Part shown: positions 3,930 through 25,557 of the stretch, piece by piece
Layout of the letters: each line of letters opens with the position of its first letter
Position numbering within the stretch: the stretch's first letter is position 1
Assembly (NCBI GenBank): GCA_016932575.1
Contig: JAFGCO010000059.1
Coordinates: 2,975 to 66,974, forward strand
Length of the DNA: 64,000 nucleotides
Source of the DNA: a bacterium
Lineage (GTDB): Bacteria; Zhuqueibacterota; QNDG01; JAFGCO01
Direction: 5' to 3'
Position numbers and translations under genes: made by a program
The notes under the pieces: generated by a model
Database searches by the model: none
Seen by the model: only the letters and a program-made list of their open reading frames with translations
What the model was told of the DNA's origin: nothing

Positions 3930-4039
3930 CAGGTTGGGGAACATGTATCTCCGGGATGCCTTATGCACCTCTCCTGAAGGAAAGCCGTTTATATGTCTAT
4001 ACAATTGAGAACAGCATTTTTGGCAAAGGAGATGATTTG

Positions 4040-6019
4040 ATGAATTTTTGTAATAAACGATTTTTCAGCAGTCGGCCCGAAAAAAAACTTTCGATCCCGG
4101 CACAGCTTTTTCTTCCGATTACCGGTCTGCTTTCCGCCCTGTGGATGCTGCTGCGGATTATCCCCAAGCCCACGCGAGCCACCTATCCCTGCATGAAAGT
4201 CGCGGCTCCGCTGGCGAGCACGTTCATTGCGTATTCTGTGGGTATTCTCGTGTCCGCTTTTTCCATCAAAAAAGCCAGATCCGCCTTTCGGCGGAAACGG
4301 TTTCAACTGATGTTCGTGTGTTTGCTTGCGGTTGTGATATCAATCGGATGGATGACGCTCCAGCCGACTCAGGATATTCTGGCCGGTCATCAGGATACCG
4401 GATACTTTGAAGATCCCCTGGGGCCGAATCAGCCCATTGGCGAAGCCAGGGGAATTTATCCGGGCCGGGTAGTCTGGGTATACAATCCCGATGCGACCAA
4501 TGAACACTGTACTAATGCAAACCATGATGACGCCTATTTTCAGAAGCATAATACCGATCAGGCGGTTGTGGATCAGATGTTTTCCAGGGGCATTCTTGAA
4601 TTGACCGGCAAAGAAACACATGCCGAAGCCTGGAATGCCATATTCCGCTATTTTAATATAAATCAAGGAAAAGGGGACACTGGTTATCAGCCGGATGAAA
4701 CACTGTTCATTAAAATCAATGCAGTCACCGCCTATAATGGAGCAGAACCAGACGGAAAAATGTCCAGATATGTCTCCATTGAATTTGACACGTCTCCGCA
4801 AACCATACTGGCCATGCTGAGACAGCTGGTCAATGAAGCCGGTGTTCCCGAAGATAAAATTTATATCGGCGATCCCATGTGTGATATCTGGAATACGCTG
4901 TACGATAAATTTTATGCTGAATTTCCGAATATCAAGTATGTGTCACAGGGAAATGTAACCGGCAGATACAAGTTAAAACCCGATACCGATCCGGGTATTT
5001 ATTATTCGGATCAGGGAACCGTCATGGATCAAATCAAGAGCCACAATTTCTTTGTTGAAATGATGAATGCGGATTATCTGGTGAACATTCCTTCTATGAA
5101 GGGGCATCGCTGGGCGGGAGTCACATTTTTTGCCAAGAATCATTTCGGATCGAATACGGCCGACCATTCATGGGAATTGCATAAAGGCCTGATGAAACCG
5201 GATGATGATCCTTTAAGGTCCGGTTACCGTTTATATCGGGTTCTTGTGGATATTATGGCGGATAAAAATCTTGGAGGCAATACTCTGCTTTATTTTATGG
5301 ACGGCCTCTGGGCGACTTCTTATGAGCACCAAAAGCCCCAGAAATTTAAGTCTGCTCCGTTTAATAATGACTGGTGTTCGTCTCTTTTCTTTTCTCTGGA
5401 TCCTGTGGCTATTGAATCAGTCTGCCTGGATATTATGCAAAAGGAGTTTAAAGAAGAGGATATGTCTGTCAAACCGCCGCGTTACACATATGTTCAGTGG
5501 GAAGGGATTGATGATTATCTTCATCAGGCCGCAAGTGCCGAATGGTGGCCGGAGGGGATTATTTATGATCCTGATAAGACGGGTTCATCCATCGCGAGTC
5601 TGGGTACACATGAGCACTGGAACAATGAAACAGATATGCAGTATTCCCGGAATCTTGGTTCAGGTAATGGCATTGAACTGGTGAAACTTTTTCAAGCCAC
5701 GGTTGTGGAAAAACCACCGAAAATCGTGGACCATTACCGGTTGTCGGGAGCTTATCCCAATCCGTTTAATCCTCAAACGAACATTCGTTTTAAGCTGACT
5801 GAAAATGCTTTTGTGAGTTTGGCGATTTACAATATTCATGGCAGGAAAGTGCGTACCCTGGTGCAGGCAGAACAATCGGCCGGGACCCATGTGGCTGTAT
5901 GGAACGGTTGTGATGCAGGGGGACGATCATTGCCTTCCGGTGTATATCTGTACCGGTTTCAGATCCGGACGGGGGAAGTTACGGATATGAAATACGGGCA
6001 GATGGTGCTGATGAAGTAG
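4040..6019 (+). CDS. DUF362-like domain protein with N-terminal TM segment and T9SS type A C-terminal sorting domain
   Basis: DUF362-like blocks are present (LFIKINAVTA, PEDKIYIGDPM, IPSMKGHRWAGVTFFAKNHFGS). The C-terminus reads AYPNPFNPQTNIRFKL...GVYLYRF. AAGGAG lies 8 nt before the ATG at 4040. Confidence 0.6.
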   Translation: MNFCNKRFFSSRPEKKLSIPAQLFLPITGLLSALWMLLRIIPKPTRATYPCMKVAAPLASTFIAYSVGILVSAFSIKKARSAFRRKRFQLMFVCLLAVVISIGWMTLQPTQDILAGHQDTGYFEDPLGPNQPIGEARGIYPGRVVWVYNPDATNEHCTNANHDDAYFQKHNTDQAVVDQMFSRGILELTGKETHAEAWNAIFRYFNINQGKGDTGYQPDETLFIKINAVTAYNGAEPDGKMSRYVSIEFDTSPQTILAMLRQLVNEAGVPEDKIYIGDPMCDIWNTLYDKFYAEFPNIKYVSQGNVTGRYKLKPDTDPGIYYSDQGTVMDQIKSHNFFVEMMNADYLVNIPSMKGHRWAGVTFFAKNHFGSNTADHSWELHKGLMKPDDDPLRSGYRLYRVLVDIMADKNLGGNTLLYFMDGLWATSYEHQKPQKFKSAPFNNDWCSSLFFSLDPVAIESVCLDIMQKEFKEEDMSVKPPRYTYVQWEGIDDYLHQAASAEWWPEGIIYDPDKTGSSIASLGTHEHWNNETDMQYSRNLGSGNGIELVKLFQATVVEKPPKIVDHYRLSGAYPNPFNPQTNIRFKLTENAFVSLAIYNIHGRKVRTLVQAEQSAGTHVAVWNGCDAGGRSLPSGVYLYRFQIRTGEVTDMKYGQMVLMK

Positions 6020-6222
6020 CTTTTTGATTGAACTGGATCGTTGGTAGGCATGAAAAGAAAAAAAGGATTCCACACCTCCGAGAGGACAAAAAATATTATA
6101 CAGATTTTTGCCTTGACAGGTCTGAATCATCTATTGGTAACCAGAATTCCGGATGAATATCCTCGCGAGTGGTGTCGATCATTCAATTCACACCTGCAAG
6201 AATTAACTATCAGAAACAGAAT

Positions 6223-8061
6223 TTACTCCCGATAATTAATCTCAATCCGTGAAATCTGTGTTTGTTCCAGGAATTCAATTTTGATGTATTGTACGGATTT
6301 ATCCGAAGGATTGGATTCATAACATACGGGACGCCAATACGCATAGTCTCCTGTGCCGCTGAAATAACTGGTTCGCTGGATATTTATTGCTGAATAGGCA
6401 TGATTGTCTTTTGCGGCGGTGATTGAGAGTGTCGGATTTTCTGATTCGGCAAATGCAAAGATTTTAATCCGGGTGATCGATCCAGGCGTCTGATAAATCA
6501 GACAACTTCCCTTTTCCCCCTGAAGCCTGACCATGTCCTCTTTGAATTTACGGTCGTCATTGCTCTGAAAAGTCAGATCTCCATTCATATGATAGGCAAC
6601 CATCCGGTTTTCCATTTCATCGATGATACTCTGCTCCTGTACCCGGACAGGCCCTGCAATATTCGATGGCATGGATTTACCTGATTGGTTTCTGGCAATC
6701 ACCCTGTAGTAATAAACCGAACCCAGCTCGGCGGATGCATCATGGAATATCGGATGGTACTGAACAGCTGCATCCGAAATATTATATCCGACGATTTTCC
6801 ATGGCCCATCAGGTGATTCGGCGCGTTCTACGTCATAGCCGCCCGCTCCCACAGATCCCTGCCAGGAGATAGACGCAACATGAGAAACCGGCAATAGGAG
6901 CGGTGATTCCGGTACAGGCACCGGAGGTGCGGGGTTGCCCTGAATGGCAAAGGCATTTTGTCTTATTACAGCCAGAAGATTTTTTTCATCGTATTCATTG
7001 CCTGAGTCAAATCCCGGCCAATGATAAGCTTTGTACAAACCATATCCCAGCGGTTCCGAGTGCCAGTAAAATCCACCGTCATGCCGGTGGTACCGCAGGC
7101 TCCAGATCAATCCTCCGGCCACATCTTTTTTTTTAATGATGTAATCAATAATATGTGTGAGGGCCGTGGTGCTTAGAAAACCGAATTCGCCTATAATATA
7201 GGGCTTGCGCTTTTGTACGACTTTAAGGTTCGATTCAATATTGACCAAAACATCCGCGGGATTGGTCTCGTAATGGTGAGATGTAACAATGTCGATGCCG
7301 GATTCGGTCAGGGCTTCTTCCCGGACCGTGCGTTGATTGATGGCATTGTATCCGTCCATAACCAGATGATTGGCATCCAATGTTTTGATATAAGTGGTGA
7401 TTATTTTTGTCCATGAATGGGGGCAGGGGAGTTCATTGCCGGTTTCCCAGCACAGGATGGATTTATCCTCGCTGTATGGAATACCGGTGACAGTGTTTGT
7501 CCGTGTGATCACAAAGCGGATTGTTTTTTTAAAATCATCGATTAATTGCGGATCCGTCCAGAAATCTTCTGCGGTTTTTCCCCTGAATGCCGCATATTGC
7601 GGTCGCCCGCCCATCCATTTCCAGGCATTCAACAGTGGCAGGATCAAACGGACTCCTGTCTCGTTGGCAAGAGCAAGCATGGTATCCATAGTAACAAAAG
7701 CCCGTTCACAGAACTCTCCAGGAGCCAGTACGTAGCGGGGGACATCATATGTGTCTGTTTTTCGACGGACCGGAATGGTATATATACGGATTACATTTCC
7801 GCCCGTTTGCCGGACTGATTCCATGGCATCGCGCATTTCAAAAGCTGTTGGTAATGCAAAAGGATGAGATCGTTCAAAATCCATTGCATCCTCGATAAAG
7901 TTCAGATTTGGAATATTGTATGACAGAAAACGGAAATTCTGGTCACCATCCATCAACCGGTATCCTTCCGTCGTGATGAAATGGTCGAATCCGGCGGCGT
8001 TGATCGAAGAGGACAGTATCATTAGAACAATGATGATTTGTGCTAAGATCCTGAAACGCAT
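6223..8061 (-). CDS. glycoside hydrolase family 5 (cellulase/mannanase-type) with Fn3-like and C-terminal beta-sandwich modules
   Basis: Signal peptide present. WETGNEL matches the acid/base motif and YIIGEFGF the nucleophile motif. The downstream module (GGYDVERAESPDGPWKIVG...YYYRVIARN) looks Fn3-like. AAGGAG precedes the ATG at 8061. Confidence 0.75.
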   Translation of the reverse strand: MRFRILAQIIIVLMILSSSINAAGFDHFITTEGYRLMDGDQNFRFLSYNIPNLNFIEDAMDFERSHPFALPTAFEMRDAMESVRQTGGNVIRIYTIPVRRKTDTYDVPRYVLAPGEFCERAFVTMDTMLALANETGVRLILPLLNAWKWMGGRPQYAAFRGKTAEDFWTDPQLIDDFKKTIRFVITRTNTVTGIPYSEDKSILCWETGNELPCPHSWTKIITTYIKTLDANHLVMDGYNAINQRTVREEALTESGIDIVTSHHYETNPADVLVNIESNLKVVQKRKPYIIGEFGFLSTTALTHIIDYIIKKKDVAGGLIWSLRYHRHDGGFYWHSEPLGYGLYKAYHWPGFDSGNEYDEKNLLAVIRQNAFAIQGNPAPPVPVPESPLLLPVSHVASISWQGSVGAGGYDVERAESPDGPWKIVGYNISDAAVQYHPIFHDASAELGSVYYYRVIARNQSGKSMPSNIAGPVRVQEQSIIDEMENRMVAYHMNGDLTFQSNDDRKFKEDMVRLQGEKGSCLIYQTPGSITRIKIFAFAESENPTLSITAAKDNHAYSAINIQRTSYFSGTGDYAYWRPVCYESNPSDKSVQYIKIEFLEQTQISRIEINYRE

Positions 8062-8304
8062 AGTCACGACTCCTTCCGCTGAAAAATAATATAACCGGTT
8101 ATCCCCGGGATAAATCACTTTTTAGACATGGATTTGGAACATCGATTGAATATTTCGTTATCAGAATTTTACCGAATTTTCCTGCTGTTGAAAGGCCTGT
8201 ATCCCTGTGATCAATGATGCTTCTATATAAGTTGATATCGGGAGCAATTTAAAGAAGTCAATTATGTATGAGAGACAAAGCCTATTTTTAAATGACAGAT
8301 TGTA

Positions 8305-8339
8305 ATAAAAAAAACTGGCAGGTTTTATAAACCTGCCAG
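8305..8339 (-). terminator. rho-independent terminator after serC
   Basis: An 11-bp stem pairs ctggcaggttt (8315-8325) with aaacctgccag (8329-8339) around a 3-nt loop. On the minus strand it is followed by a run of 8 T (A-run 8307-8314 on plus), 25 nt past the serC stop. Confidence 0.65.
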
Positions 8340-8363
8340 TTTTGAAAAACAATTTAAAAATAT

Positions 8364-9452
8364 TTATCCGTTTTTTTCAGCGAACTTTTTCATAAACGCC
8401 GTTAATTCTTTGATGCCCTGCGGTTCCATGGCATTGTACATGGATACGCGAATTCCACCCACAGAACGGTGGCCTTTCAGCCCGCCAAAACCGGCTGCCA
8501 GTGCGTCGGCCACAAATTTGGCTTCCAGTTCTTCTGTGGGAAGCCGGAATGTCGCATTCATCGATGAACGGTTTTCTTTTTCAACAGTGCCTCTGAAAAA
8601 ATCACTCATTTCGTCAATTATTCCATAGAGCATATTTGCTTTTTCCTGATTGCGTTTTTCCACGCCCTGCAGTCCGCCCACACTTTTCACCCAGTCCAGC
8701 ACCAGTTTCATAAGATAGATAGAATAGGTGGGTGGCGTATTGTAGAGCGAGTCTTTATCCGCCTGTGTCCGGTATTGCAGGATGATTGGAATGTCTTCCC
8801 TGCCAGCCTCAATGAAATCTTCCCGAATAATGACGACAGTGATTCCGGAGGGCCCCAGGTTTTTCTGAGCGCCGGCATAGATGATTCCAAATTTTGAAAA
8901 ATCAACTTTCCGGGATAAAATATCGCTTGACATATCTGCCACAAGCGGGATGCCATTTGTATCCGGAAATGTTTGAAACTGCGTTCCCGCGATTGTATTA
9001 TTTGATGTGATATGACAGTAAACAGCATCCTGACTGAGATTGAGTTCGTCCTGTGCGGGAATCCGATTAAAATTGGTTTCTTCCGATGAGGCAGCAACAT
9101 TGACCGTTCCCTGTATTTTTGCTTCTTTCAATGCTTTCTTTGACCAACTGCCTGTAATGATGTAATCCGCTGATTTACCTTCACCAAGAAGATTCATTGG
9201 GATCTGGGCAAATTGCAGACTTGCACCCCCCTGGAGAAAGAGTATCTTGAAATTATCAGGAACACCAAACAGATCACGCATCAAAGTCATGGCGTCTTTA
9301 TGAACAGCATCATATTGTTTGGACCGATGGCTGAGCTCCATGACAGCCATACCCGAGTTATCGTAATCCGGCAGATCGGCCTTTGCTTTTTCCAGTGCGG
9401 ATAATGGCAGTGTCGCCGGTCCGGGATTGAAATTCCAAATTCTGTTTGCCAT
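8364..9452 (-). CDS. serC: phosphoserine aminotransferase
   Basis: N-terminus reads MANRIWNFNPGPATLP, and the C-terminus has GGIRVSMYNAM. GGAG RBS. I moved the start to the ATG at 9452. Confidence 0.9.
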   Translation of the reverse strand: MANRIWNFNPGPATLPLSALEKAKADLPDYDNSGMAVMELSHRSKQYDAVHKDAMTLMRDLFGVPDNFKILFLQGGASLQFAQIPMNLLGEGKSADYIITGSWSKKALKEAKIQGTVNVAASSEETNFNRIPAQDELNLSQDAVYCHITSNNTIAGTQFQTFPDTNGIPLVADMSSDILSRKVDFSKFGIIYAGAQKNLGPSGITVVIIREDFIEAGREDIPIILQYRTQADKDSLYNTPPTYSIYLMKLVLDWVKSVGGLQGVEKRNQEKANMLYGIIDEMSDFFRGTVEKENRSSMNATFRLPTEELEAKFVADALAAGFGGLKGHRSVGGIRVSMYNAMEPQGIKELTAFMKKFAEKNG

Positions 9453-13245: not shown

Positions 13246-15414
13246 TTAAATTTTTCCCTGCAGTCCGATCACGTAGGTTCTGGGCGGCATAAGGTTGCTT
13301 TCCATGGGAGCGTAATTGTAGTTAAAGAGGTTGCGGACGCCGGTTTTCAGAATAAGTTTGCTGATTTTTATATTCAGCCGCACGTCCCAGAATTTCATGG
13401 GTACTCTTTGATTGATGGGGTAAATTTTTACAGCCTCAATACGACTGGCATACCGATAATCCACCTGCAAGTTGATTATTCCCACCTGAAAGGCGGTTTT
13501 CAGGGTGGCCAGGGTGTTGGGCCGGTAGGTGAGAGGCGCGTTCCATTTCAGGTCCCTGTGATCCATGGCGGTAAGACTCACATCCACACTGGGCGTGAAA
13601 CGAAGGCCCGTAATGAAGAGCGGCTGGCTCCATTTTGTGGTGATTTCGAGACCCTGAACCCGGGCACGGCCCACATTGCGAAACTGGATCAGACCGCGAA
13701 ACAGGTCCAGATGCGCCTCGATCAGATTTTTATAATCGTTTCTGAATACTGAGAGATCCAGGTTCCAGTTTTCCGTAAAGTGATGCCTGAGTCCGGCGTC
13801 ATACGCCCAGCAGGATTCCGCCTGCAGATCCGGATTGGACTGAACCTTCAAGTTCATGACCGAGACTTCAAGGAAACGCTCAACGATGGTGGCCGCACGA
13901 AATCCGCTGCCTACGGATCCTCTGAGACTGGTCGTAGGCCAGGGCTGCCAGTTTACACCAAACCTGGGACTGAAAAGATCTTCCCTGAGCCCGTCTATCA
14001 GCTGATACCGGTCGTACCGCAGACCCAGTGTGGCTCTTAAATTTTTAAGAACGGACCATTCATCCTGTATATAGGGGCCCAGGAAATATCCGATATGGTT
14101 TCCGAAATATTTTGCACTTCCGGCGTCATGCTGAAAATTGATACCGCCGGTGATTGTGTGCGATGTATGGGGAATCCAGTCAGCCTGGATTTCGGCACCC
14201 TGCCCAAGCGAGGGATTGATATCGGATGTTTCACCGAACTGGTCTCCCAGAATGCTTCGGACCATGGATACCCTGAACCGCAGTCCGAAACCGGGAGACA
14301 GGGGAATGGCCAGTTTTGTATACAGATTGAGCTGATTGGTTCTTCCGTAATTGTCCAGGTTGGTTTCATCGACTTCATAGGGATCGTTGGGACCCTTCCA
14401 TTGAATGAAGAATCCTCTGTGAATGTAGCTGAAAGCCGCATATGATGTCCATTTCAATCCGTTTTGGAAGTGAACGTCGAATTTACCGGTCACATTGTAT
14501 TTGTTGAAGTCTCCGACTTCTGTGTAACCGGTTGATGTGAACCGGCCGGCTGAAACGCGCATGCCCAGTTTTCCCATTTGCTGGCTGTAACTGACATCTC
14601 CACGCGTATAATAGAGTTTGTCATGATCTGTCCATTCCCATGCCTTGTATTGGGGATATCCGTATTTTCCGCCAGTGTATGCAAAACGTAACTGGCCATC
14701 ACGAGAAGGCGGCCGAGTGATAATATTCACGACACCGCCAAGCGCGGATGTGCCCCATAATGTCGATCCAGCCCCTTTCAGCACTTCGATCTGCTGAATA
14801 TCTAGTGGCGGCAGCATATCCCAGTTAAATTCACCCGTATCGCTGGCATACACCGGCACACCGTCCAGAAGCAGCAGTACTTTGTTTCCCGCGCCGAATG
14901 TATAGCCGGTAGAGCCCCGGATATTAATCTGATTCCCGATAAAATTCACACCGGGCGCAGATTCCAGTGCCACAATCAGATCCGTGGCGCTTTTATTCTC
15001 GATTTCACGGGCAGATACCACAGAAAGAGAGGCATTGGCCTGATCCAGCCGCTGCTGAACTTTTCCGCCCAGTACCACAATCGGATCGAATTCTATGGGT
15101 GTTTCCTGCAATTCGACATGCACTTCCGTGGTCTGATTCTCCCCGATTTTAATATCCACTGTCTTTGCTCGGTAACTGATCATGGATACACGGATTTGAT
15201 ACTTGCCCGGATAAATATTTCTGATTTGAAAGTGCCCTTTTGCATCCGCGCTGCTGCCGAGCACAGTCCCCAGCACCTGGATATTGGCACCAGGGAGGGG
15301 CTGACCGCTTTGTGCATCTGCTACAGTGCCATTAATTTGCCCGAATGACCACAATGCAGAATGAAAAGAATGAAACAATATCAGGATCAGGATTTGCGCG
15401 CCTCTTTTTTTCAT
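13246..15414 (-). CDS. TonB-dependent receptor with N-terminal CarboxypepD_reg domain
   Basis: Signal peptide, then a CarboxypepD_reg-like block (GTVADAQSGQPLPGANIQV...GKYQIRVSMISY), a plug region (INIRGSTG, LLLDGVPV) and a long beta-barrel. The ATG at 15414 overlaps the upstream stop (ATGA). Confidence 0.85.
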   Translation of the reverse strand: MKKRGAQILILILFHSFHSALWSFGQINGTVADAQSGQPLPGANIQVLGTVLGSSADAKGHFQIRNIYPGKYQIRVSMISYRAKTVDIKIGENQTTEVHVELQETPIEFDPIVVLGGKVQQRLDQANASLSVVSAREIENKSATDLIVALESAPGVNFIGNQINIRGSTGYTFGAGNKVLLLLDGVPVYASDTGEFNWDMLPPLDIQQIEVLKGAGSTLWGTSALGGVVNIITRPPSRDGQLRFAYTGGKYGYPQYKAWEWTDHDKLYYTRGDVSYSQQMGKLGMRVSAGRFTSTGYTEVGDFNKYNVTGKFDVHFQNGLKWTSYAAFSYIHRGFFIQWKGPNDPYEVDETNLDNYGRTNQLNLYTKLAIPLSPGFGLRFRVSMVRSILGDQFGETSDINPSLGQGAEIQADWIPHTSHTITGGINFQHDAGSAKYFGNHIGYFLGPYIQDEWSVLKNLRATLGLRYDRYQLIDGLREDLFSPRFGVNWQPWPTTSLRGSVGSGFRAATIVERFLEVSVMNLKVQSNPDLQAESCWAYDAGLRHHFTENWNLDLSVFRNDYKNLIEAHLDLFRGLIQFRNVGRARVQGLEITTKWSQPLFITGLRFTPSVDVSLTAMDHRDLKWNAPLTYRPNTLATLKTAFQVGIINLQVDYRYASRIEAVKIYPINQRVPMKFWDVRLNIKISKLILKTGVRNLFNYNYAPMESNLMPPRTYVIGLQGKI

Positions 15415-16238
15415 AGCATCTCCTCGGGAAGCGCTGGTTTCACCTGCTCCCAATCCACAAAAATCTCGACACCGGACAAGGTTGAATCCGGCTTTACGGC
15501 TTTTTTCCAGAGTTCGCCGGGACGGTCTGGATCCATGGCTTCCCCGATGATCTGTACATCATAGAGAGGGGCGTTTTCAGCGAGCCAGAAAATGGCAATG
15601 TAACCCACATAACCACTTTTTATCGGCAGAATAAAATTGTGCTGTTTGACTCCTTTTTCCACTGTCATATCGATTGATTTCAGCCAGACCAGGTAAAATA
15701 CAACGCTCAGAGGTTTCTGGTTGAATGCCGCGACAGCAGTCACAGCAGTATTTTCGGGAAATTCGCCTTCAAAATAGACAGTGCCCCGTATGGCGGCATC
15801 CCGGTTCATATTTTCCCAATTGGCGTTTAAATGTCTTTCAACAAAAGGTTCTTCCTTTGAGATTGTGAAACCAAGCGGCTCAAATGTCATACCGTCAAAT
15901 GGCATGGCCAGTATATCGGCCAGATTGGATCGTGTGTCTTTGCTGTACCACCAGAGGCCGTACGCTTCATAGTGACCGTAGGGAAGGTCAATTTCGGTCC
16001 ATACCGTATCCTGATTTAAAGGCAGGCTGTTGGGGCTTTGAAAAAGCTCATTGATGGCATGGGGTGGAAATTCCGGCGCGACAATCAGATAAACGCCCTG
16101 GGTATCTTCAGGCGGATTACCCCGGAATGCCACCTGGGCTCTCAGCCTGCCCGGTACTGGGGCCAGACCGTGATCCACTTCACAGGCGGACTGGGATAGA
16201 ATGAAAAAAATGATGATTCCTAAAAAGCATCGTTTCAT
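15411..16238 (-). CDS. hypothetical lipoprotein
   Basis: Signal peptide with a lipobox-like LSQSAC. Translationally coupled (ATGA) to the TonB-dependent receptor gene. I recognise no family. Confidence 0.6.
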   Translation of the reverse strand: MKRCFLGIIIFFILSQSACEVDHGLAPVPGRLRAQVAFRGNPPEDTQGVYLIVAPEFPPHAINELFQSPNSLPLNQDTVWTEIDLPYGHYEAYGLWWYSKDTRSNLADILAMPFDGMTFEPLGFTISKEEPFVERHLNANWENMNRDAAIRGTVYFEGEFPENTAVTAVAAFNQKPLSVVFYLVWLKSIDMTVEKGVKQHNFILPIKSGYVGYIAIFWLAENAPLYDVQIIGEAMDPDRPGELWKKAVKPDSTLSGVEIFVDWEQVKPALPEEML

Positions 16239-16285: not shown

Positions 16286-18064
16286 TTATTTAAGCAGAAG
16301 GATTTTTTTCTGATCCTGCCAGTGTTCGGTTTCCAGACGGACAAGATAAAGACCGGATTGTAGACGCTTGCCCAGATCGTCTGCTGCTTTCCAGATAACC
16401 GTATGATGCCCGGCCTCAACGGAATATTGATCGATGCGTCCTACCCGGCGGCCCGCTGCGTCGAATACGGTGAGTCGGATATCCGATGGCCGGTCCAGAA
16501 TAAATTGAATGCGTGTGGTGCTGTTGAACGGATTTGGATAATTTTGTGAGAGCCCGAATTGCTCTGGTGATGCGATTTCATTAATTTTTGACAGGTCGAT
16601 TTCTTCTGAACGGGCTGTAAGGTTGACTGAAGACAAGAGCTGACCATAGAGTGTTTCCGCGAAAGTCTGATTCTGGTTGGCCCCCAATAAATATGAGGTA
16701 AAGCTGAAATCCAGATTGACCGGTTTGTCATGCCGGGTATTAAAAAAGCGAAGCCCGCTGTCACCATATGAAATGTAATCTCCGGAATCATCGGCTATCA
16801 GAATATCCTGATCGGCCTGTCCGCCGTCCTGATTATCAAAATAATACAAAGACACATCATCCCAGTTGGATTCGGCAAAATCGAACAGGTTAAACATGGT
16901 TCCCTGGTTTCCTGTGGCCATGGTCCAGACCCGAAGGCGCTCTCCTGTTGTTATATCAACTTCTGTATTTATCTGATCTGTCTGACCATCGATGGATACC
17001 TCGCTGTTATGCGGATTGAAAAATTTCATTCCCGTTGCGTTCTCATTGAAATCCCATGATTGCCGTAAATAGTCGACTTCGATCACCAGCTGCATGGACG
17101 GTTCATCCAGGGCTTCCCGGATACTGTCCGGATCGAGTACTGTTCCGCCTTCAGATGTCCCGGAGAATGGATAATTTTTCGTGGTAATATAAAATTCTGC
17201 TCCTTCCAGAGGGGCACCGAGCCCAATGCCCATCCGCACTTCACGAATGATTCTGACCACAGGCTGGTCCGTGTAGGCGAGGTAGGTGTCATTATCAAAC
17301 TGCATTAAAATCTGTTCTGTGGCACTGTTGGCATCATCCCGGCCCCATGTCAACTGAAGGCCCGACCAGTCAACATACCCATTTAATCGTAATTTCTGTG
17401 TATCAAAAATATCCTGGCCGGATCCATAAGGGGGCCTGATCAGAATATCTGATATGAGTCCGTCTTGCTGATTGATTGTCATGGAATAGGCCAGGCTTTG
17501 AACGGTATGGGTTCCCGGATCGAATTGCATGGCGTACCTGTCGGCCACATCCGCGGGCATAACCAGCGTGCCCGACCTGTAGATATAGGCGTAAGCGCTT
17601 TCACCACTCAGCGGATCCGTGATTTCAAGCTCACACCTGTGGTTTGCCCTGGCTTCCGCATTATCGATCCAATCATGATCAGGGGCCTTGTCCCCCAAAT
17701 CCCGGATCATAAATACCAGTTCATCATCGCCGTCGAAGCCCGGCAGTGTATCAGGCTGGACATAATCCGGATTTATATTGGCGATGATATAAAAATGGCG
17801 CTCCCGTTCATTTTCGCCTTTTGCCAGGTCCGGGTCGGGTAATTTGGCCCGTTCGTCGATCTGGAACGGGATCATGGCCCAGGCGCCTTCCCGGTATGCG
17901 TAGACAAATATTTCATTCACCGGAATGCCCTTCACAGGCTGGATGTCCGAACCGAGAATAACCATTGGTTCATATGGCCGGTCTTCATAAGGTTTACCGC
18001 TGTATAAGATTCCTGCCGTCAGGAACAGAAGCAGGCTCTGACAGATTCGGATGGATACTTTCAT
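16286..18064 (-). CDS. hypothetical secreted protein with T9SS type A C-terminal sorting domain
   Basis: Signal peptide present. The C-terminus reads QNYPNPFNSTTRIQFIL...GLYLVRLE...K. First gene of a three-gene co-directional set. Confidence 0.65.
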   Translation of the reverse strand: MKVSIRICQSLLLFLTAGILYSGKPYEDRPYEPMVILGSDIQPVKGIPVNEIFVYAYREGAWAMIPFQIDERAKLPDPDLAKGENERERHFYIIANINPDYVQPDTLPGFDGDDELVFMIRDLGDKAPDHDWIDNAEARANHRCELEITDPLSGESAYAYIYRSGTLVMPADVADRYAMQFDPGTHTVQSLAYSMTINQQDGLISDILIRPPYGSGQDIFDTQKLRLNGYVDWSGLQLTWGRDDANSATEQILMQFDNDTYLAYTDQPVVRIIREVRMGIGLGAPLEGAEFYITTKNYPFSGTSEGGTVLDPDSIREALDEPSMQLVIEVDYLRQSWDFNENATGMKFFNPHNSEVSIDGQTDQINTEVDITTGERLRVWTMATGNQGTMFNLFDFAESNWDDVSLYYFDNQDGGQADQDILIADDSGDYISYGDSGLRFFNTRHDKPVNLDFSFTSYLLGANQNQTFAETLYGQLLSSVNLTARSEEIDLSKINEIASPEQFGLSQNYPNPFNSTTRIQFILDRPSDIRLTVFDAAGRRVGRIDQYSVEAGHHTVIWKAADDLGKRLQSGLYLVRLETEHWQDQKKILLLK

Positions 18065-18423: not shown

Positions 18424-19605
18424 TCAAACCCCGCCGTAGACTTTGGCGGCTTCTAAAATGAGTTTCGGATGCTTTAATAAAGCCGTCTTGAAAATCTGCA
18501 TGATTGACCGGTTTTTTAATGGTATGCCGTTGACTGTTTGCGCGATTTTATTCAAGTCCTTGTCAGAGAATTTATTTACCACCTGCTGTATACGATAACT
18601 TCTTTCGTTATTTTTACCTTCGGTTTTGTGCCATTCTTTAACATATGGACTCAGCTGTTTTTCAGAAACATCTCCTTTCCGGATCGCATCAGCGGCGACC
18701 CGGCCTGCAATTTTTCCGGCGATCATACCGTTCAAAATGCCCCCGCCAGTCATGGGATTCACCTGATGGGCCGCATCTCCCACGAGCATGAGCCCGTCTG
18801 CCACGATATGTTTTAAAGTGTCCACACAGGGAACACCGCCGGCAACCAGGGTTAATATTTTTGCACCGGGGAAATGCTTGTCCACGAATTGATGCAGATA
18901 GGCAATCGGTTTCATCTCGGCCGAATATTTGCCTGAAACCCCCAGACCGACATTTGCCATTCGCGGACCTTTGGGAAAAACCCAGGCATATCCGCCCGGT
19001 GCCACTTGATTCCCGAAATAGATCACAATGGTTTCGGGATCGATATCGATATCCGCCAGTGTCATTTGAGCGCAGGTATCCATGTCTTTTGGTTTTGTAC
19101 GGGTTTTTAATCCTGCCCGGCGGCCGAGCCGTGATTCAACTCCGTCTGCTCCGATAACCAGGCGGCTCCTGAATTCAATTTTTCTGTCCAGATGTTCGGC
19201 CCTGACACCTGCGATATTGCCGCTTTCCCGAATGATATCGTACACGTATGCCCGAGTCAGAATATTCACGCCCGCTTCTCCAGCCATGGAAGCCAGATCA
19301 TAATCAAAGAGTTTTCGATGCAATATGTATCCGACCTGTCCTGCAGTACCGACATCGACTGCAGTACCATCCGGGGCAATAAGTTGGGCCTTTGTTATTT
19401 TCTGAGAGATCCATCCCGGCTTCACAAATCCCATGACCAGTTTTAATCCGGCTTGAGACACGCCCTCGGCGCATCGCACAGGTACGCCGATTTCCCGGTC
19501 TTTTTCAAGCATAATCACAGACGCGCCGCCTTTTGCGGCTTCCAGGGCAGCCATGGATCCGGCGGGTCCTCCTCCGACGACAATTATATCATAAGCGGTG
19601 TTCAT
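18424..19605 (-). CDS. FAD-dependent oxidoreductase of the geranylgeranyl reductase family
   Basis: Contains DIIVVGGGPAGS (GxGxxG), VRCAEGVS and LVGDAAHQVNPMTGGGI, and is about 393 aa. The ATG at 19605 overlaps the ferredoxin stop codon (ATGA). Confidence 0.75.
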   Translation of the reverse strand: MNTAYDIIVVGGGPAGSMAALEAAKGGASVIMLEKDREIGVPVRCAEGVSQAGLKLVMGFVKPGWISQKITKAQLIAPDGTAVDVGTAGQVGYILHRKLFDYDLASMAGEAGVNILTRAYVYDIIRESGNIAGVRAEHLDRKIEFRSRLVIGADGVESRLGRRAGLKTRTKPKDMDTCAQMTLADIDIDPETIVIYFGNQVAPGGYAWVFPKGPRMANVGLGVSGKYSAEMKPIAYLHQFVDKHFPGAKILTLVAGGVPCVDTLKHIVADGLMLVGDAAHQVNPMTGGGILNGMIAGKIAGRVAADAIRKGDVSEKQLSPYVKEWHKTEGKNNERSYRIQQVVNKFSDKDLNKIAQTVNGIPLKNRSIMQIFKTALLKHPKLILEAAKVYGGV

Positions 19606-19787
19606 GAGTGCACCTCCGGAACACCCAGCGGGCAGATATTCACACAATGGTAACATAAAGTACAGGCCTCTTTATCCACCCGAATTGTGGATTCTTTCAG
19701 CTCAATTGCGTCCGCGGGGCAGACAGCCACACAAGTTCCGCAAAAATCACATCGCTCGCTATCGATGGTAATGGTTGTTTCAGCCAT
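19602..19787 (-). CDS. 2x[4Fe-4S] ferredoxin (61 aa)
   Basis: Two CxxCxxCxxxCP motifs are present: CDFCGTCVAVCP and CTLCYHCVNICP. Confidence 0.85.
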   Translation of the reverse strand: MAETTITIDSERCDFCGTCVAVCPADAIELKESTIRVDKEACTLCYHCVNICPLGVPEVHS

Positions 19788-19889
19788 TTATATTCCTTTA
19801 TGTTAATTCAATTGCCGAATATGGATAAGTCATGTGGAAAGGTACAAATATTTTTAACTTAAAATCAATATTTTGTTGTACATTTTTAA

Positions 19890-20939
19890 TCAGGTAACCT
19901 TTTGAACTTTTTTTATATTTTGCATCATTTCTCTGAAAGATCTCGGATGGATCAGCAAATAACGCTGTGTATAGCAAGTGGTCCAGCATCCCCGGCATGT
20001 TTTATATTCATTGAGACGATTTTTGTATTTATCTGAAGAGAATATTTCATCCAATGTCTGATCGAAAATATTGCCGATCGGATCCCCGTAGCACAGATGC
20101 ACGGCACCGTCTTCCATTATGGTCACGCGTGTGGCCAGTACAGGGGCATCCAGAAAGGCACAGTAATCAGAAGTCCGGGAAGCCACGAAAGAGGGCACGC
20201 CTGCCAGATAGGATTTCAGGTTCAGAATCTGCGGATGCTTCATCAGATAAGCTGTTATTTTATCGATGCGCTCTCCCGGCTCCAGACGCAATTCGTCATC
20301 CTGACGTGTTGTCGCTGTTAATGAATGGTACATGCCCACTGTGGTCTTCCATCCCAGATCATTGGCCCGCCGGATCAGCTCGGGCACCTGATTCAGGTTG
20401 AGATTGTTCATGACAATATTGGCGTACAGCAGTGATCTGGAATTGCCGCGGTGTTTGGAAATCCATGCCATGTGATTGAGCACTGTATCTGCAAAATGAC
20501 TGACGCCCCGCAGATTGTCCCCCAGATTTCCGAGTCCGTCCAGTGATGTCTGAATGTGGATATCATGATCCAATGCCACCCGTGCGATTTTCCGAATGAT
20601 TTCAGATTTATTGTATAATCCGGTAACCAAAGTTGTGGCCAGAATAAACGTCTTTTTCGCTTCGATCAGCATTTGATCCAGGTCAGGAACCAATGTGGCT
20701 TCTCCGCCGGAGATAAATCCGATAAAAGCCCCGTAATCCTTCAATCTTGCCATCATTTCCCTGAATTGGATCAGATTCAGGGACGGGGGATCCGTTGTTT
20801 TCTCGTATACGCTGCACTGCCGGCAACGTTGTGTGCACAAACGTGTCAGACGGATTTCAGTGCTTGAATTGAGCGGTTTTCGGGTGAGTCCCCGACAGAT
20901 GAGTCGTTTGGTTAAATAGGCAGTCTGTGAAAGATTCAC
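19890..20939 (-). CDS. radical SAM protein with C-terminal SPASM/twitch-like Cys cluster
   Basis: CTQRCRQC gives the CxxxCxxC motif about 35 aa from the proposed start. The C-terminus reads HLCYGDPIGNIFDQTL...CRGCWTTC. The proposed GTG start at 20939 overlaps the upstream GT2 stop (GTGA). The ORF-track ATG at 21104 would overlap that gene by 169 nt. Confidence 0.75.
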   Translation of the reverse strand: MNLSQTAYLTKRLICRGLTRKPLNSSTEIRLTRLCTQRCRQCSVYEKTTDPPSLNLIQFREMMARLKDYGAFIGFISGGEATLVPDLDQMLIEAKKTFILATTLVTGLYNKSEIIRKIARVALDHDIHIQTSLDGLGNLGDNLRGVSHFADTVLNHMAWISKHRGNSRSLLYANIVMNNLNLNQVPELIRRANDLGWKTTVGMYHSLTATTRQDDELRLEPGERIDKITAYLMKHPQILNLKSYLAGVPSFVASRTSDYCAFLDAPVLATRVTIMEDGAVHLCYGDPIGNIFDQTLDEIFSSDKYKNRLNEYKTCRGCWTTCYTQRYLLIHPRSFREMMQNIKKVQKVT

Positions 20940-22087
20940 TTTTGCTCCGATGAAAGATGAATTCGATTTTTCCAATGAAATCCGCCCAGCGTGCCGAAAA
21001 TTCCAACATATACCACATAAGGAATCTGAACGAAAAACCATACCGGAAATACGGATAGCAGATCCGTCCGTCCGAACAGGCGGCATCCCCGAATCAAAAG
21101 CCATGCCTCAGCCAGCAATTTCAACCCCCAGGCGATGAGAAGACAGCAAAGCAGATTCGGCAGTATCAATGCCAGGGGAAGAGAAAGGCATAAGATCAAA
21201 TTGGTCAGGAAAGTGATAATCACATATCCGAAAAATGGTTTGTTGAGCTTCCATTGATAAGCGCCATTGGATGCCCATCGTTTCCGCTGATTGATGAAGG
21301 CAGAGAATGTGGATTCTGCCTGTGTATGATTATAAGCGTTTTCTGATGATGCGAAACGTATTTTCCAGTCGGTTTTTTTCCGAATCAGCTGCAGAAGAAG
21401 CACATCATCACCGGAGATCCTGCGGCCGATTTGTGTAAATCCGCCCACTTCGTGGTAGACAGATTTTCGATACGCCAGATTCTGCCCGGAAGCCGCCCAT
21501 GCCCATCCCAGTCTGGCAGTTCCAAGGGCTGCTGCCATCAGCATTAAAAAATCCACGGCCTGCAGTTTTTGAAAATATATGCAACCGGTATTTGGAATGC
21601 ACAATTGAGAAAATCCCACCACCATTCCCGTATCTTTGGTAAAATATGAAACCATGGTTTCCGCCCAGCCGGGCAATACACGGCAATCTGCGTCGGTAGT
21701 CAGAATGATTTCGCCCGTGGCATGATGCAATGCCTGTGCGAGGGCGTTCTTTTTTGCTGTGAAGCCCGACTCAGCGGATTTGATGGATATTAATCTGAAT
21801 CTCGAATCCTTCCGGGAATAAGCACGGACGATTTCGGCTGTCCCGTCTTCGGAATGATCGTCTGCAATTAAAATTTCCATCAAATCCTCAGAATAAGTCT
21901 GAATTTTCAAATCATCCAGCAAGTTGCGAATGTTTTTTTCTTCATTCCTTGCCGCAATCACAACAGAGATCCGCGGACAGTTTTGTGACCTTGGATTATC
22001 TTTTTTTTGTAAGCCCGCCTGAAAAACCAGCAATACGCCGGTGTAGATTAACACGGGAAGAAGAAGGACGGCAACAACGAATTCCAC
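20936..22087 (-). CDS. integral-membrane family 2 glycosyltransferase (synthase-like, D,D,D,QxxRW)
   Basis: N-terminal TM segment, then ADDHSEDGT, TTDADC, SGDDVLL and QRKRWA, followed by about 4 C-terminal TM segments. Confidence 0.8.
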   Translation of the reverse strand: MEFVVAVLLLPVLIYTGVLLVFQAGLQKKDNPRSQNCPRISVVIAARNEEKNIRNLLDDLKIQTYSEDLMEILIADDHSEDGTAEIVRAYSRKDSRFRLISIKSAESGFTAKKNALAQALHHATGEIILTTDADCRVLPGWAETMVSYFTKDTGMVVGFSQLCIPNTGCIYFQKLQAVDFLMLMAAALGTARLGWAWAASGQNLAYRKSVYHEVGGFTQIGRRISGDDVLLLQLIRKKTDWKIRFASSENAYNHTQAESTFSAFINQRKRWASNGAYQWKLNKPFFGYVIITFLTNLILCLSLPLALILPNLLCCLLIAWGLKLLAEAWLLIRGCRLFGRTDLLSVFPVWFFVQIPYVVYVGIFGTLGGFHWKNRIHLSSEQK

Positions 22088-22611: not shown

Positions 22612-23745
22612 TTATCCCCCGGTCATCGTTTTTGAATACCGGGTTTCCTTCCATTTAAACTTTCCAAATTGTCCCCACAATCCAAAAATTACCACATAAG
22701 GAATATGGATAAACATGGCAACGGGAAAAAACCTGAGTAAACGCACTTGTGAAAATATTCTGGCCGTACGATATACGAGCAAAAATTCCGTACACGCCTT
22801 CAATCCGAATACAAGCAGCATCCACGGATAAAGGGTTGGAAAAAATAATGCGCTCAATAAAGACAGATTGAACAGATAGACGCCGATGAGACTCCATTTT
22901 AATCCTGTGCGGTAATGCAGCCCCTTGGATGCATGTCGGATTCGCTGATTAGAGAATTCTCCAAAGCTGCCTGCCGGTCGTGCCGGTACCACAGAATGAG
23001 GGTCAATTGAAAACCGAACCTGATAATTTGTATTTTCCGTGATTAAATGAAGCAGAAGGTCGTCATCTCCTGAAATAAACTGGCCAGTCGCCCTGAAGCC
23101 GCCGATTGATTGAAAAACAGATTTGCGATAGGCCAGATTGCGGCCGGCACAGGTCAAAGGCAATCCGGCTCCGAAACTGCCGGCCATGACACTGGCCAGT
23201 CCCAATGCTTCCAGAGCGATAAACGAACTCAGGGCAGAGGCAGGCGCCGCGGCTGTCAGAGGAGAATATCCGGCCACCAGGGCCACATTGTCCTCAAAAT
23301 AGGCAACCATCGAAGAAATCCATCCGGATTGCGGCCTGCAGTCCGCGTCTGTGGTGAGTATAATATCACCTTTTGCCGATGCGATGCCCTGTTGAAGCGC
23401 ATATTTTTTTGGTGCCATTTTCGGATAAAGAACATTAATGTCTATACATTGTAAATTAGATGAACTGTGCATCATCGTACGCACAATGTCTCCTGTATGG
23501 TCCTCAGAGCGGTCATTGACTACAATGATTTCAAATTTTGTCTGCGGATAAGTTTGATGAATTACGGCATTCAGACAAGATCCGATATTGCTTTCTTCAT
23601 TTCGCGCGGGAATAATGACCGATACAAAGGGACGAATAGCTGCGTTTCCGGTTGAAAGGGCAGTTGTTCCCAGAATCAGCCGGATACAGATGCTTATATA
23701 AAACAGACCGAATAAGAGAATAGATGCGAGAATGATCCAATTCAC
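22612..23745 (-). CDS. integral-membrane family 2 glycosyltransferase, paralogue with QxxRH in place of QxxRW
   Basis: Same architecture as 20936..22087: NDRSEDHT, TTDADC and SGDDDLL, but QRIRHA replaces QRKRWA. Confidence 0.8.
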   Translation of the reverse strand: MNWIILASILLFGLFYISICIRLILGTTALSTGNAAIRPFVSVIIPARNEESNIGSCLNAVIHQTYPQTKFEIIVVNDRSEDHTGDIVRTMMHSSSNLQCIDINVLYPKMAPKKYALQQGIASAKGDIILTTDADCRPQSGWISSMVAYFEDNVALVAGYSPLTAAAPASALSSFIALEALGLASVMAGSFGAGLPLTCAGRNLAYRKSVFQSIGGFRATGQFISGDDDLLLHLITENTNYQVRFSIDPHSVVPARPAGSFGEFSNQRIRHASKGLHYRTGLKWSLIGVYLFNLSLLSALFFPTLYPWMLLVFGLKACTEFLLVYRTARIFSQVRLLRFFPVAMFIHIPYVVIFGLWGQFGKFKWKETRYSKTMTGG

Positions 23746-24006: not shown

Positions 24007-25557
24007 TTAATAATTCAACTGAAAATGCAATTGTATCTGATTGTAATTCTTATTTTTATCCCGTTCTCCGAGAACATTCGAAACCCGATGATAGGAATAG
24101 CCTGATTTGAGGTAACAGTCTTTCAGGAGCTGGTACTCCATTTCAAATCCAATGATTTCATGGGACTCCACCACTCCTGACAGGAATTTTTTTCGGGTGC
24201 TTTCGGTTCTATTGGCGGGTGTATATAAATCGCCCTCGCCGTGGCGCGTGCGGTTTATATAGAATGTACTGTTGAAAATCCGGGACACCCAATATCCAAT
24301 TTGTATATGTACATTATCGCTGTTCGGGCCCAGCCAGTGCCCGATGGATCGGCCATATTGCTGATAGATATTCAAAGAATCCTGATGGGTATACACATAG
24401 GGTTCGATTCGGGCGTATTCCATTTGAAGATCCCATCCACGGAATCCGAATAAATCCAGCCAGCGCCAGCCGACAAGCAGCGCCCATTTGTTACCGTAAT
24501 AGGTCAACGGATTTTCAGAAGAGGTATAATCATCCAGAAAGAGTTCCAGGTACAGTTTATGATTTTTCCACGGAAATAAATTCGCATCAAACGCCATGGT
24601 GTTGTTATCCCGGTCGCCCAGATGATGCTCGGCCACATGGTATGGCATAAGCGGGTTTAAATACATGGGTTCAATGTCCCGGTTACCATAGATAACAAGT
24701 TCGCTTCCGGCAACAGACAGCCAGGGAGAAATACGAAATTCCAGGCGGTGTGCGGCCAAATATTTTGGAGCCTGCGTGTAATTGAGCTTGCCATGGATAC
24801 TTGTGAATTGAAACCGTGTAAAGAAGACCTGAAGACGGAGCATGTCAAAGTAGGCGTCATGGTTTGACAGCATAAGGTTTCCCTGTTGACCCGGACCCCA
24901 TCGGGCTTCGTCTCTGCCAAATTCAATATTGACGTGTGGCAGATGAAATAAAAAGTAAGCGGAAGCGTTGTCAGTAAAAGTGTTTTTCCCTGATATGATA
25001 ATTGGTGCGCCCCGTGAGGGATCGAATTGTTCTTCTTCAAATGCTTCCCCCTTTCGCAGTGTGTTGTAAGCATGAAGAAAATATCCCAATTGATCGGTGA
25101 GCTGTCCACGTAAATAGCCGCCTCCTGTGGTATGCGAGATCGTGCTTCCGCGATCGCCGCTCTGTCGGATGATTTGCTGATCAAGAAGCAGATCGGCATC
25201 GGCTCTGTACCGGCCGTCTGATTCTGACCAGGTTAAAAGATGCCTTTCATGAAATTTGGATTGTATTTTTATGTCATGGGAAATGAGATCACCCACAAAT
25301 TCACCTTTGAATTGTTCAAACAGGCTGATTTCGGATTCAGTAAGCCTCTCTGTATGAATCGATTTTTGGATTTCGATAAAGGCTTTTACGATTTCCTTGC
25401 GTGTAAAAGGATAACTGCCATATTGAGAAGACAATATGCCTTTGCACTGCATGCGGTCCAAAAAATCATAGACGCGGTGATTGAGCGGCACAAATACTGG
25501 CTGGGCAATCAGGAAACTTGCGCCCAAAAGAATAAAAATGAAACAAAGTTTCTTCAA
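24007..25557 (-). CDS. outer-membrane protein, probable capsule-assembly Wzi-like family
   Basis: Signal peptide, then PLNHRVYDFLDRMQCKGIL...PFTRKEI, which resembles the Wzi N-terminal helical block. A beta-barrel-like aromatic-rich sequence follows. The assignment is from memory of the family pattern. Confidence 0.5.
   Translation of the reverse strand: MKKLCFIFILLGASFLIAQPVFVPLNHRVYDFLDRMQCKGILSSQYGSYPFTRKEIVKAFIEIQKSIHTERLTESEISLFEQFKGEFVGDLISHDIKIQSKFHERHLLTWSESDGRYRADADLLLDQQIIRQSGDRGSTISHTTGGGYLRGQLTDQLGYFLHAYNTLRKGEAFEEEQFDPSRGAPIIISGKNTFTDNASAYFLFHLPHVNIEFGRDEARWGPGQQGNLMLSNHDAYFDMLRLQVFFTRFQFTSIHGKLNYTQAPKYLAAHRLEFRISPWLSVAGSELVIYGNRDIEPMYLNPLMPYHVAEHHLGDRDNNTMAFDANLFPWKNHKLYLELFLDDYTSSENPLTYYGNKWALLVGWRWLDLFGFRGWDLQMEYARIEPYVYTHQDSLNIYQQYGRSIGHWLGPNSDNVHIQIGYWVSRIFNSTFYINRTRHGEGDLYTPANRTESTRKKFLSGVVESHEIIGFEMEYQLLKDCYLKSGYSYHRVSNVLGERDKNKNYNQIQLHFQLNY

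Follow-up and report, generated by a model that had tools for sequence, protein, structure and literature searches.

A conserved ferredoxin–geranylgeranyl reductase gene pair in a KSB1 bacterium as a candidate module for saturating archaeal-like ether lipids

We analysed a 64,000-nucleotide stretch of contig JAFGCO010000059.1 (positions 2,975 to 66,974 of the forward strand; hereafter the window) from assembly GCA_016932575.1, the genome of a KSB1 (candidate phylum Zhuqueibacterota) bacterium, in which the gene for a small 2x[4Fe-4S] ferredoxin lies directly upstream of, and overlaps, a gene for a flavoprotein of the geranylgeranyl reductase (GGR) family. The reading that we favour, with a probability of roughly 0.62, is that the pair constitutes a ferredoxin-dependent geranylgeranyl (polyprenyl) reductase which binds the ferredoxin as its electron donor and acts on glycerol ether lipids derived from a geranylgeranylglyceryl phosphate (GGGP) synthase, GGGPS, and a prenyltransferase of the UbiA family. 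The family membership of the reductase and the conservation of the gene pair are read directly from the sequences; the actual substrate, the ferredoxin requirement, the reductant of the ferredoxin and whether the products reach the membrane are what we infer.

Judged by its sequence, the 393-aa product of the downstream gene is a true GGR-family enzyme and a predicted reductase of prenyl C=C bonds. It scores 227.4 bits against the NCBIfam family model TIGR02032 (curated cut-off 158.8) and 97.3 against the Pfam model PF22578 GGR_cat (cut-off 27, E 4.9e-28), and FAD_binding_3 is matched as well. The highest-scoring NCBIfam models are those of the archaeal digeranylgeranylglycerophospholipid (DGGGPL) reductases; of the equivalog models compared (NF041160, NF041080 and NF041385), none reaches its cut-off, with 255.6 against 780 for the Thermoplasmatales model, 183 against 580 for the general model and 87.5 against 700 for the third. 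Scores are far below cut-off for the BchP/ChlP models TIGR02023 and TIGR02028 (126 against 343.3 and 77.4 against 505.3), for the MenJ model NF045655 (65.9 against 700) and for the FixC models (64.7 against 610 and 56.5 against 466). FixC, hydroxylase, ChlP and MenJ identities were rejected on these curated scores together with the trees described below.

The closest relative of solved structure is the DGGGPL reductase of Thermoplasma acidophilum (PDB 3oz2, E 6.7e-70, residues 4-385), followed by the Sulfolobus GGR (E ~1e-31) and FixC (7koe, E 7e-12). The Thermoplasma enzyme shares the FAD and catalytic motifs of the window GGR, which is no Thermoplasmatales equivalog by the score given above. 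Across 20 aligned homologues GxGxxG (11-16), R44-C45, R97xxF100D101, P203xGYxWxFPK212 and G276DAA279 are invariant or near-invariant. The motifs that define GGRs, namely the FAD-contacting RxxFD and LxGD(AA) and the catalytic Cys, were taken from PMC10821996. The catalytic Cys, which is Cys47 in the Sulfolobus GGR, and the cavity motif PxxYxWxFP are present: C45 and P203-x-G-Y206-x-W208-x-F210-P211 do not vary among the 20 homologues and align with their counterparts in 3oz2 and 4opl. The preliminary description of this DNA had placed the protein in the GGR family from the letters alone, an assignment that the scores of the curated hidden Markov models, the motifs and the 3oz2 match all uphold. 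It is the only GGR above the family cut-off in its genome.

The upstream gene encodes a 61-aa protein which Pfam classes as a 4Fe-4S dicluster ferredoxin. It carries two CxxCxxCxxxCP motifs (C13/16/19/23 and C42/45/48/52), of which the eight cysteines and both CP prolines are unchanged in 20 ferredoxin homologues, and its profile matches in the PDB are to generic dicluster ferredoxins only. The ferredoxin stop codon (TGA, 19604-19602) and the GGR start codon (ATG, 19605-19603) share an ATGA on the minus strand, exactly where an overlap had initially been noted. A longer, 410-aa open reading frame (ORF) for the GGR, starting at the ATG at 19656, is not supported, since every homologue begins at the MxxxYD(V/I)IVVGGGPAG position.

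The adjacency of the two genes is far beyond chance, and together they form a conserved module. A scan for related loci that kept one genome per species yielded 51 loci: those of KSB1 are 54-57% identical to the window GGR, those of Neomarinimicrobiota, Ignavibacteriota/Bacteroidota, Latescibacterota and Calditrichaceae 44-57%, and those of DPANN archaea ~40%. By tblastn and ORF analysis, a same-strand ferredoxin lies immediately 5' of the GGR in 43 of the 44 bacterial loci with upstream sequence, which span five or more FCB lineages, and in most related loci the stop and start overlap by 4, 11, 17 or 25 nt. The sole exception (L019, GGR at 4028-5182) has no CxxCxxCxxxCP ferredoxin within 700 nt 5' of the GGR. 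The pair also occurs in four further genomes of the KSB1 phylum, and on a Cloacimonadota contig (L079), whose GGR is the closest 50%-cluster representative at 48% identity, the ferredoxin overlaps the GGR by 4 nt. An identical 4-nt overlap is seen on contigs of Methanosarcinales/Euryarchaeota type (L076-78), with GGRs 46-47% identical to that of the window, and a metagenome-assembled genome (MAG) of the DPANN archaeon Iainarchaeum holds an overlapping pair too. On the contigs of Methanosarcinales/Euryarchaeota type the pair is flanked by typically archaeal genes, for example Fae-Hps and GatE-like genes.

Several variants of the module were seen along the way. Many bacterial partner ferredoxins have a ninth cysteine, and an Ignavibacteria/Bacteroidota subclade (L033, L042, L043, L049, L050 and L052) carries a C-terminal extension of 20-25 residues, bringing the ferredoxin to 83-86 aa in total; a UbiA gene lies directly 3' of the GGR in five of these six long-ferredoxin loci, L050 having no UbiA match. 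In the Iainarchaeum locus (L062) two tandem GGGPS homologues (951-2368 and 5635-7001) are found ~3 kb 5' of the pair. A Bacteroidota genome contains a tandem pair of GGRs (G187:C63:100969-103354), each 50% identical to the window GGR and ~10 kb from a DGGGPS-like UbiA gene. Finally, the tblastn match to the GGR in a Calditrichaceae MAG (L057:8001-9322) falls into two segments, 8001-8510 and 8612-9322, so that this copy may be frameshifted, interrupted by an insertion or misassembled.

To model the complex, we predicted the structure of the GGR with FAD, two 4Fe-4S clusters and the ferredoxin, using a 20-row alignment per protein and three controls. The interface score ipSAE was 0.95 for the GGR-ferredoxin pair and 0.09 for the best control; in a benchmark, 58 of 80 solved complexes and 2 of 110 mismatched pairs attained the mark for this score, a calibration that is approximate here, with our own alignments and riding ligands. 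Individual runs share at least 98% of their contacts, and the pLDDT of the partner is at least 93. On the ferredoxin side the modelled interface is formed by both cluster-binding loops (residues 14-32 and 47-55), and on the GGR side by residues 35-37, R44, which is next to the catalytic C45, 156-179, 225-234 and 253-259. The model thus supports docking of the ferredoxin on the GGR as a prediction. In the mechanism that we propose, translational coupling would match synthesis of the ferredoxin to that of the flavoenzyme, and the ferredoxin would bind the GGR and pass low-potential electrons to FAD; reduced FAD and Cys45 would then hydrogenate the double bonds in geranylgeranyl chains. The likeliest substrates would be glycerol ethers made by the genome's GGGPS and a UbiA resembling digeranylgeranylglyceryl phosphate (DGGGP) synthase, DGGGPS, with phytanyl-type (archaeol-like) lipids as the products.

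The case for an ether-lipid substrate comes from gene content and gene order. The window's own genome encodes a GGGPS (G000:C69:11338-12087) above the cut-offs of TIGR01769 (218.4 against 161.55) and NF003198 (302.8 against 247), as well as two polyprenyl synthases. Throughout the phylum the GGR was detected in 128 of 151 genomes (87 of the 105 of high quality), GGGPS in 143 (103 of 105) and a DGGGPS-like UbiA in 139 (102 of 105); since the latter two are near-universal there, co-occurrence within KSB1 is uninformative. More can be learned from a sample of 121 Bacteroidota genomes, all at least 90% complete and chosen around the Ignavibacteriota MAG G151, because GGR, UbiA and GGGPS are patchy in it. 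Here the three genes are strictly nested: the 17 genomes with a GGR lie within the 27 with the UbiA orthologue, and these within the 54 with GGGPS. The DGGGPS-like UbiA is accordingly present in 17/17 GGR-bearing genomes as against 10/104 that lack the GGR. In ten of ten GGR-bearing genomes of other lineages GGGPS scores above its cut-off.

Gene order points in the same direction. The ferredoxin, GGR and UbiA genes follow one another on the same strand at L033, L042 (same contig as L083), L043, L049 and L052, with a gap between GGR and UbiA of ~150-225 bp as measured from the ends of the tblastn matches. At L084 the UbiA gene adjoins the GGR divergently, and in G263, G173, G178, G168 and G187 it is ~10 kb off. 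The GGR-adjacent UbiA proteins share DGGGPS-type best matches. Among the substrates that the preliminary description had named, the ether lipid is thus favoured over a quinone by phyletic nesting and gene adjacency. As for the GGGP and DGGGP synthase homologues that it had proposed to look for in the rest of the genome, the former is found above a curated cut-off, and the latter takes the form of a UbiA that is DGGGPS-like and below the equivalog cut-offs.

Trees were built with FastTree (163 sequences) and with IQ-TREE (LG+C20 with posterior mean site frequencies, PMSF, quick search; 55 sequences); the reference sequences were annotated genes from plasmids and from E. coli. The window GGR pairs with the homologue L014 (SH-aLRT, the Shimodaira-Hasegawa-like approximate likelihood ratio test, 96) and then with three KSB1-labelled sequences (91), inside an FCB-type clade (for Fibrobacterota-Chlorobiota-Bacteroidota; SH-aLRT 85) that takes in Cloacimonadota, Delongbacteria, Ignavibacteriota/Bacteroidota and Marinimicrobia. 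The Methanosarcinales/Syntrophoarchaeum, Methanobacterium/DPANN and TA06/Zixibacteria clades branch from a polytomous backbone, and given this polytomy neither tree tells in which direction a transfer between FCB bacteria and archaea ran. Very long branches, far from the window GGR, lead to the annotated BchP of Roseobacter and Novosphingobium, a Streptomyces GGR-family protein, the haloarchaeal GGRs and E. coli FixC, that of the FixC outgroup measuring 2-4 substitutions per site; the joint clustering of the long-branch BchP, haloarchaeal and Streptomyces references is probably artefactual. Because FixC and BchP lie so far off, the grouping with FixC or hydroxylases that had at first been entertained as an alternative outcome is not what the trees return.

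Several observations weigh against an ether-lipid role. In the window's own genome, which is 94.5% complete, the UbiA (G000:C71:123882-124754) has DGGGPS-type models as its best matches and stays below their cut-offs (NF009523 245.8 against 269; NF009521 229.2 against 296). Neither a glycerol-1-phosphate (G1P) dehydrogenase nor CarS (CDP-archaeol synthase) was found in it: the PF13685 matches are AroB and one iron-dependent alcohol dehydrogenase (Fe-ADH), and PF01864 has no match. Such G1P dehydrogenase and CarS gaps have been reported for most FCB phyla (PMC6431249, PMC7852524). The GGR, GGGPS and UbiA genes are scattered over the genome, the latter two in neighbourhoods of housekeeping genes only. 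Two KSB1 families, f14 and f18, have a GGR in just 1/10 and 5/14 genomes, with GGGPS in 10/10 and 13/14 and UbiA in 7/10 and 12/14; saturation is therefore not obligatory for the products of the prenyltransferase, and these families may make unsaturated ether lipids or use another reductase. Shared ancestry inflates the co-occurrence counts and with them the hypergeometric p of 4e-14 obtained in the Bacteroidota sample for the nesting of GGR in UbiA. Moreover, GGRs are promiscuous, and archaeal paralogues have been proposed to act on quinones and polyprenols (PMC10821996). Some of these points also favour a ferredoxin-dependent prenyl reductase with a different substrate, such as the menaquinone side chain (as in MenJ), polyprenyl phosphate carriers (dolichol-like) or free geranylgeranyl diphosphate (GGPP) for phytyl-type products, an explanation that we regard as unlikely. 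It would fit the MenA-like prenyltransferase and the decaprenyl-phosphate phosphoribosyltransferase-like UbiA of the genome, the separation of the GGR from GGGPS and UbiA, and the families that retain these two with the GGR undetected. It sits badly with the low MenJ score and, as far as menaquinone is concerned, with the distribution of MenA, which was found in 91/121 Bacteroidota genomes, namely in 10/17 with a GGR (unmatched in 7) and in 81/104 without one, MqnP-type prenyltransferases of the futalosine pathway being outside the search. Also against it are the DGGGPS-like UbiA in every GGR-bearing genome of this sample and the position of the GGR beside that gene in several genomes.

A separate question is whether the ferredoxin feeds the GGR directly. 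It could be co-transcribed only and serve another enzyme, or be a link in a longer chain, with the GGR of the GGGPS/DGGGPS pathway reduced by NAD(P)H. NADPH use has been reported in vitro for the Thermoplasma GGR, the closest solved relative, and the Sulfolobus GGR worked in E. coli with no ferredoxin supplied (PMC10821996, PMC4244643); the locus that lacks a ferredoxin within 700 nt would also agree with this. Yet the T. acidophilum locus has a 4Fe-4S protein as well, suggested to be the in vivo reducer (PMC10821996). Set against an indirect role are also the adjacency and the overlapping reading frames, kept across phyla and domains, and the gap in ipSAE between the complex and its best control, which together make it quite improbable. 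The confidence of the complex model may itself be partly borrowed, a further reservation about the ferredoxin as bound donor, because a distantly related complex of FixC/EtfC-FixX type has already been solved; the 7koe entry, we presume, contains the ferredoxin-like subunit of this flavoprotein-ferredoxin complex. In a further reading, the protein would be no prenyl reductase at all and instead a FixC/ETF-QO-type oxidoreductase, or an aromatic hydroxylase or halogenase, with a FixX-like ferredoxin. The superfamily fold is common to all of them, there are weak matches to FixC (64.7 bits; 7koe), hydroxylases and halogenases, and E. coli fixC and fixX likewise overlap by 4 nt. We consider this reading essentially refuted: with 57-65 bits the protein falls far short of the FixC cut-offs of 466-610, it has the catalytic domain specific to GGRs together with the invariant motifs, no EtfAB genes are among the genes flanking the pair, and E. 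coli FixC is on a very long branch in both trees.

As a structural analogue for the heterodimer predicted from GGR and ferredoxin, FixC/EtfC-FixX is nonetheless plausible. Both 7koe and E. coli fixCX combine a flavoprotein of the same superfamily with a small ferredoxin-like partner, encoded by overlapping genes. Unlike in these systems, the gene order in the window is reversed, EtfAB does not flank the pair, similarity is confined to ~65 bits and the catalytic domain is a different one.

The nearest functional precedent is Methanosarcina acetivorans, the comparison drawn in the preliminary description. According to PMC4244643 and PMC8941075, both citing Isobe 2014, lipid saturation by its GGR MA_1484 in E. 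coli depended on co-expression of the upstream ferredoxin MA_1485. As reported there, a small 2x[4Fe-4S] ferredoxin lies directly 5' of a GGR of ~390-400 aa, as in the window, and the parallel is borne out by this pair together with the 4-nt pairs on the Methanosarcinales-type contigs. With the GGRs of that type the window locus shares 46-47% identity, the 4-nt overlap and a genome that encodes GGGPS and, in the window's case, a DGGGPS-like prenyltransferase. It differs from M. acetivorans in that the host is a KSB1 bacterium with no G1P dehydrogenase or CarS detected, and its GGR belongs to the separate FCB clade, the relation of which to the methanogen clades the tree leaves unresolved.

Among bacteria, the closest parallel is Candidatus Cloacimonetes, in which a GGR 'closely related to Euryarchaeota' has been described alongside functional GGGPS and DGGGPS (Villanueva 2021, PMC7852524). 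GGGPS and DGGGPS occur in all FCB phyla surveyed by Coleman 2019 (PMC6431249). Like the Cloacimonetes set, that of the window belongs to an FCB bacterium and comprises GGGPS, a DGGGPS-like UbiA and GGR with no CarS detected, and the Cloacimonadota GGR, 48% identical to the window's, also has an overlapping ferredoxin; the difference is the phylum, here KSB1/Zhuqueibacterota. The occurrence of archaeal-type lipid genes in FCB bacteria, mentioned at the outset as a proposal, is already in print for GGR, GGGPS and DGGGPS, and the window locus is a further, incremental example of genes that are already known. The paper describing the KSB1/Zhuqueibacterota phylum makes no mention of lipid genes. 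In the literature searched, we found no statement of the near-universal overlapping ferredoxin of bacterial GGRs, nor of the trio in 128-143 of 151 KSB1 genomes, the nested pattern or the ferredoxin-GGR-UbiA clusters.

If membranes of mixed bacterial and archaeal lipid chemistry exist in nature, they are to be expected mainly in FCB bacteria; the matter is central to the 'lipid divide', and the locus adds a whole candidate phylum to it. The nested distribution and the ferredoxin-GGR-UbiA clusters turn into a concrete, testable pathway assignment. In practical terms, because the bacterial GGRs, like that of Methanosarcina, have a ferredoxin of their own that is translationally coupled to them, heterologous reconstitution of the saturated lipids of these bacteria should include it. 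A bolder extension, which we find possible and on balance doubtful, is that KSB1 and the GGR-bearing Ignavibacteria and Marinimicrobia constitutively make saturated, archaeol-like isoprenoid glycerol di-ethers as a regular membrane component, despite no G1P dehydrogenase or CarS having been found. The agent would be a ferredoxin-GGR heterodimer of stable composition, its two genes exchanged as a unit with archaea resembling methanogens. If true, this would amount to a natural 'mixed membrane' across a whole phylum.

The features of the locus are collected in Table 1. Consensus scans for promoters and terminators around the pair gave nothing above shuffled sequence, and no sigma-70-like site was found by consensus scan in the spacer upstream of the ferredoxin; transcription from farther upstream is possible.

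Table 1. Positions of the ferredoxin-GGR pair and associated features in the window
Feature	Position	Strand	Basis
61-aa clostridial-type 2x[4Fe-4S] ferredoxin, proposed electron-input partner of the GGR	19602..19787	-	translation; Fer4 and Fer4_7 matches
393-aa FAD-dependent geranylgeranyl reductase (GGR family)	18424..19605	-	TIGR02032, PF22578 and PDB 3oz2 matches
ATGA start/stop overlap (translational coupling)	19602..19605	-	read from sequence
GGAGG, Shine-Dalgarno-like for the GGR, within the ferredoxin coding sequence; putative function	19613..19617	-	7 nt 5' of ATG
102-bp spacer from the upstream radical-SAM gene to the ferredoxin start; may hold a promoter	19788..19889	-	sequence reading

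On the 5' side of the ferredoxin, and on the same strand, lies a radical S-adenosylmethionine (radical-SAM)/SPASM gene (19890-20939) whose GTG start overlaps the stop of the first of two polytopic genes resembling glycosyltransferase families 2 and 21 (GT2/GT21-like; 20936-22087 and 22612-23745). Farther upstream on this strand is a Wzi-like gene (24007-25557). The radical-SAM protein is 60-83% identical across many KSB1 MAGs, and its gene and both GT2 genes are highly conserved in KSB1. By analogy with M. acetivorans, where the ferredoxin-GGR pair adjoins the tetraether synthase (Tes) gene MA_1486, the radical-SAM and GT2 genes were considered as a conserved operon with the pair; this was rejected, as these genes are absent from 50 of 50 related loci. 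Nor are they present at the sister-genus locus, where 1.2 kb 5' of the ferredoxin are covered, or at three more loci of the same phylum, and they stand beside the pair only in the window and in a very close relative (L092). Another KSB1 locus (L091) has the GT2-GT2-radical-SAM genes without the pair, together with Wzi-like, polysaccharide deacetylase and LPG_synthase_TM genes. Against the PDB the radical-SAM protein has a significant match to SkfB only, with no detectable similarity to the solved tetraether synthase, and an Atlas search with it returned generic radical-SAM clusters only. We therefore treat the radical-SAM/GT2 module as a feature separate from the ferredoxin-GGR pair. As speculation by analogy, the combination of glycosyltransferase, deacetylase and radical-SAM genes recalls hopanoid HpnI/HpnK/HpnJ or calditol-type head-group chemistry.

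On the 3' side of the GGR, again on the minus strand, are genes for a protein with a type IX secretion system (T9SS) C-terminal sorting domain (16286-18064), a 275-aa protein with no family match (15411-16238) and, beyond these, a TonB-dependent receptor (13246-15453). Synteny with the close relative L092 covers all three genes, and with the sister genus (L087) the T9SS and 275-aa genes. A T9SS tail is in keeping with a host of the FCB group.

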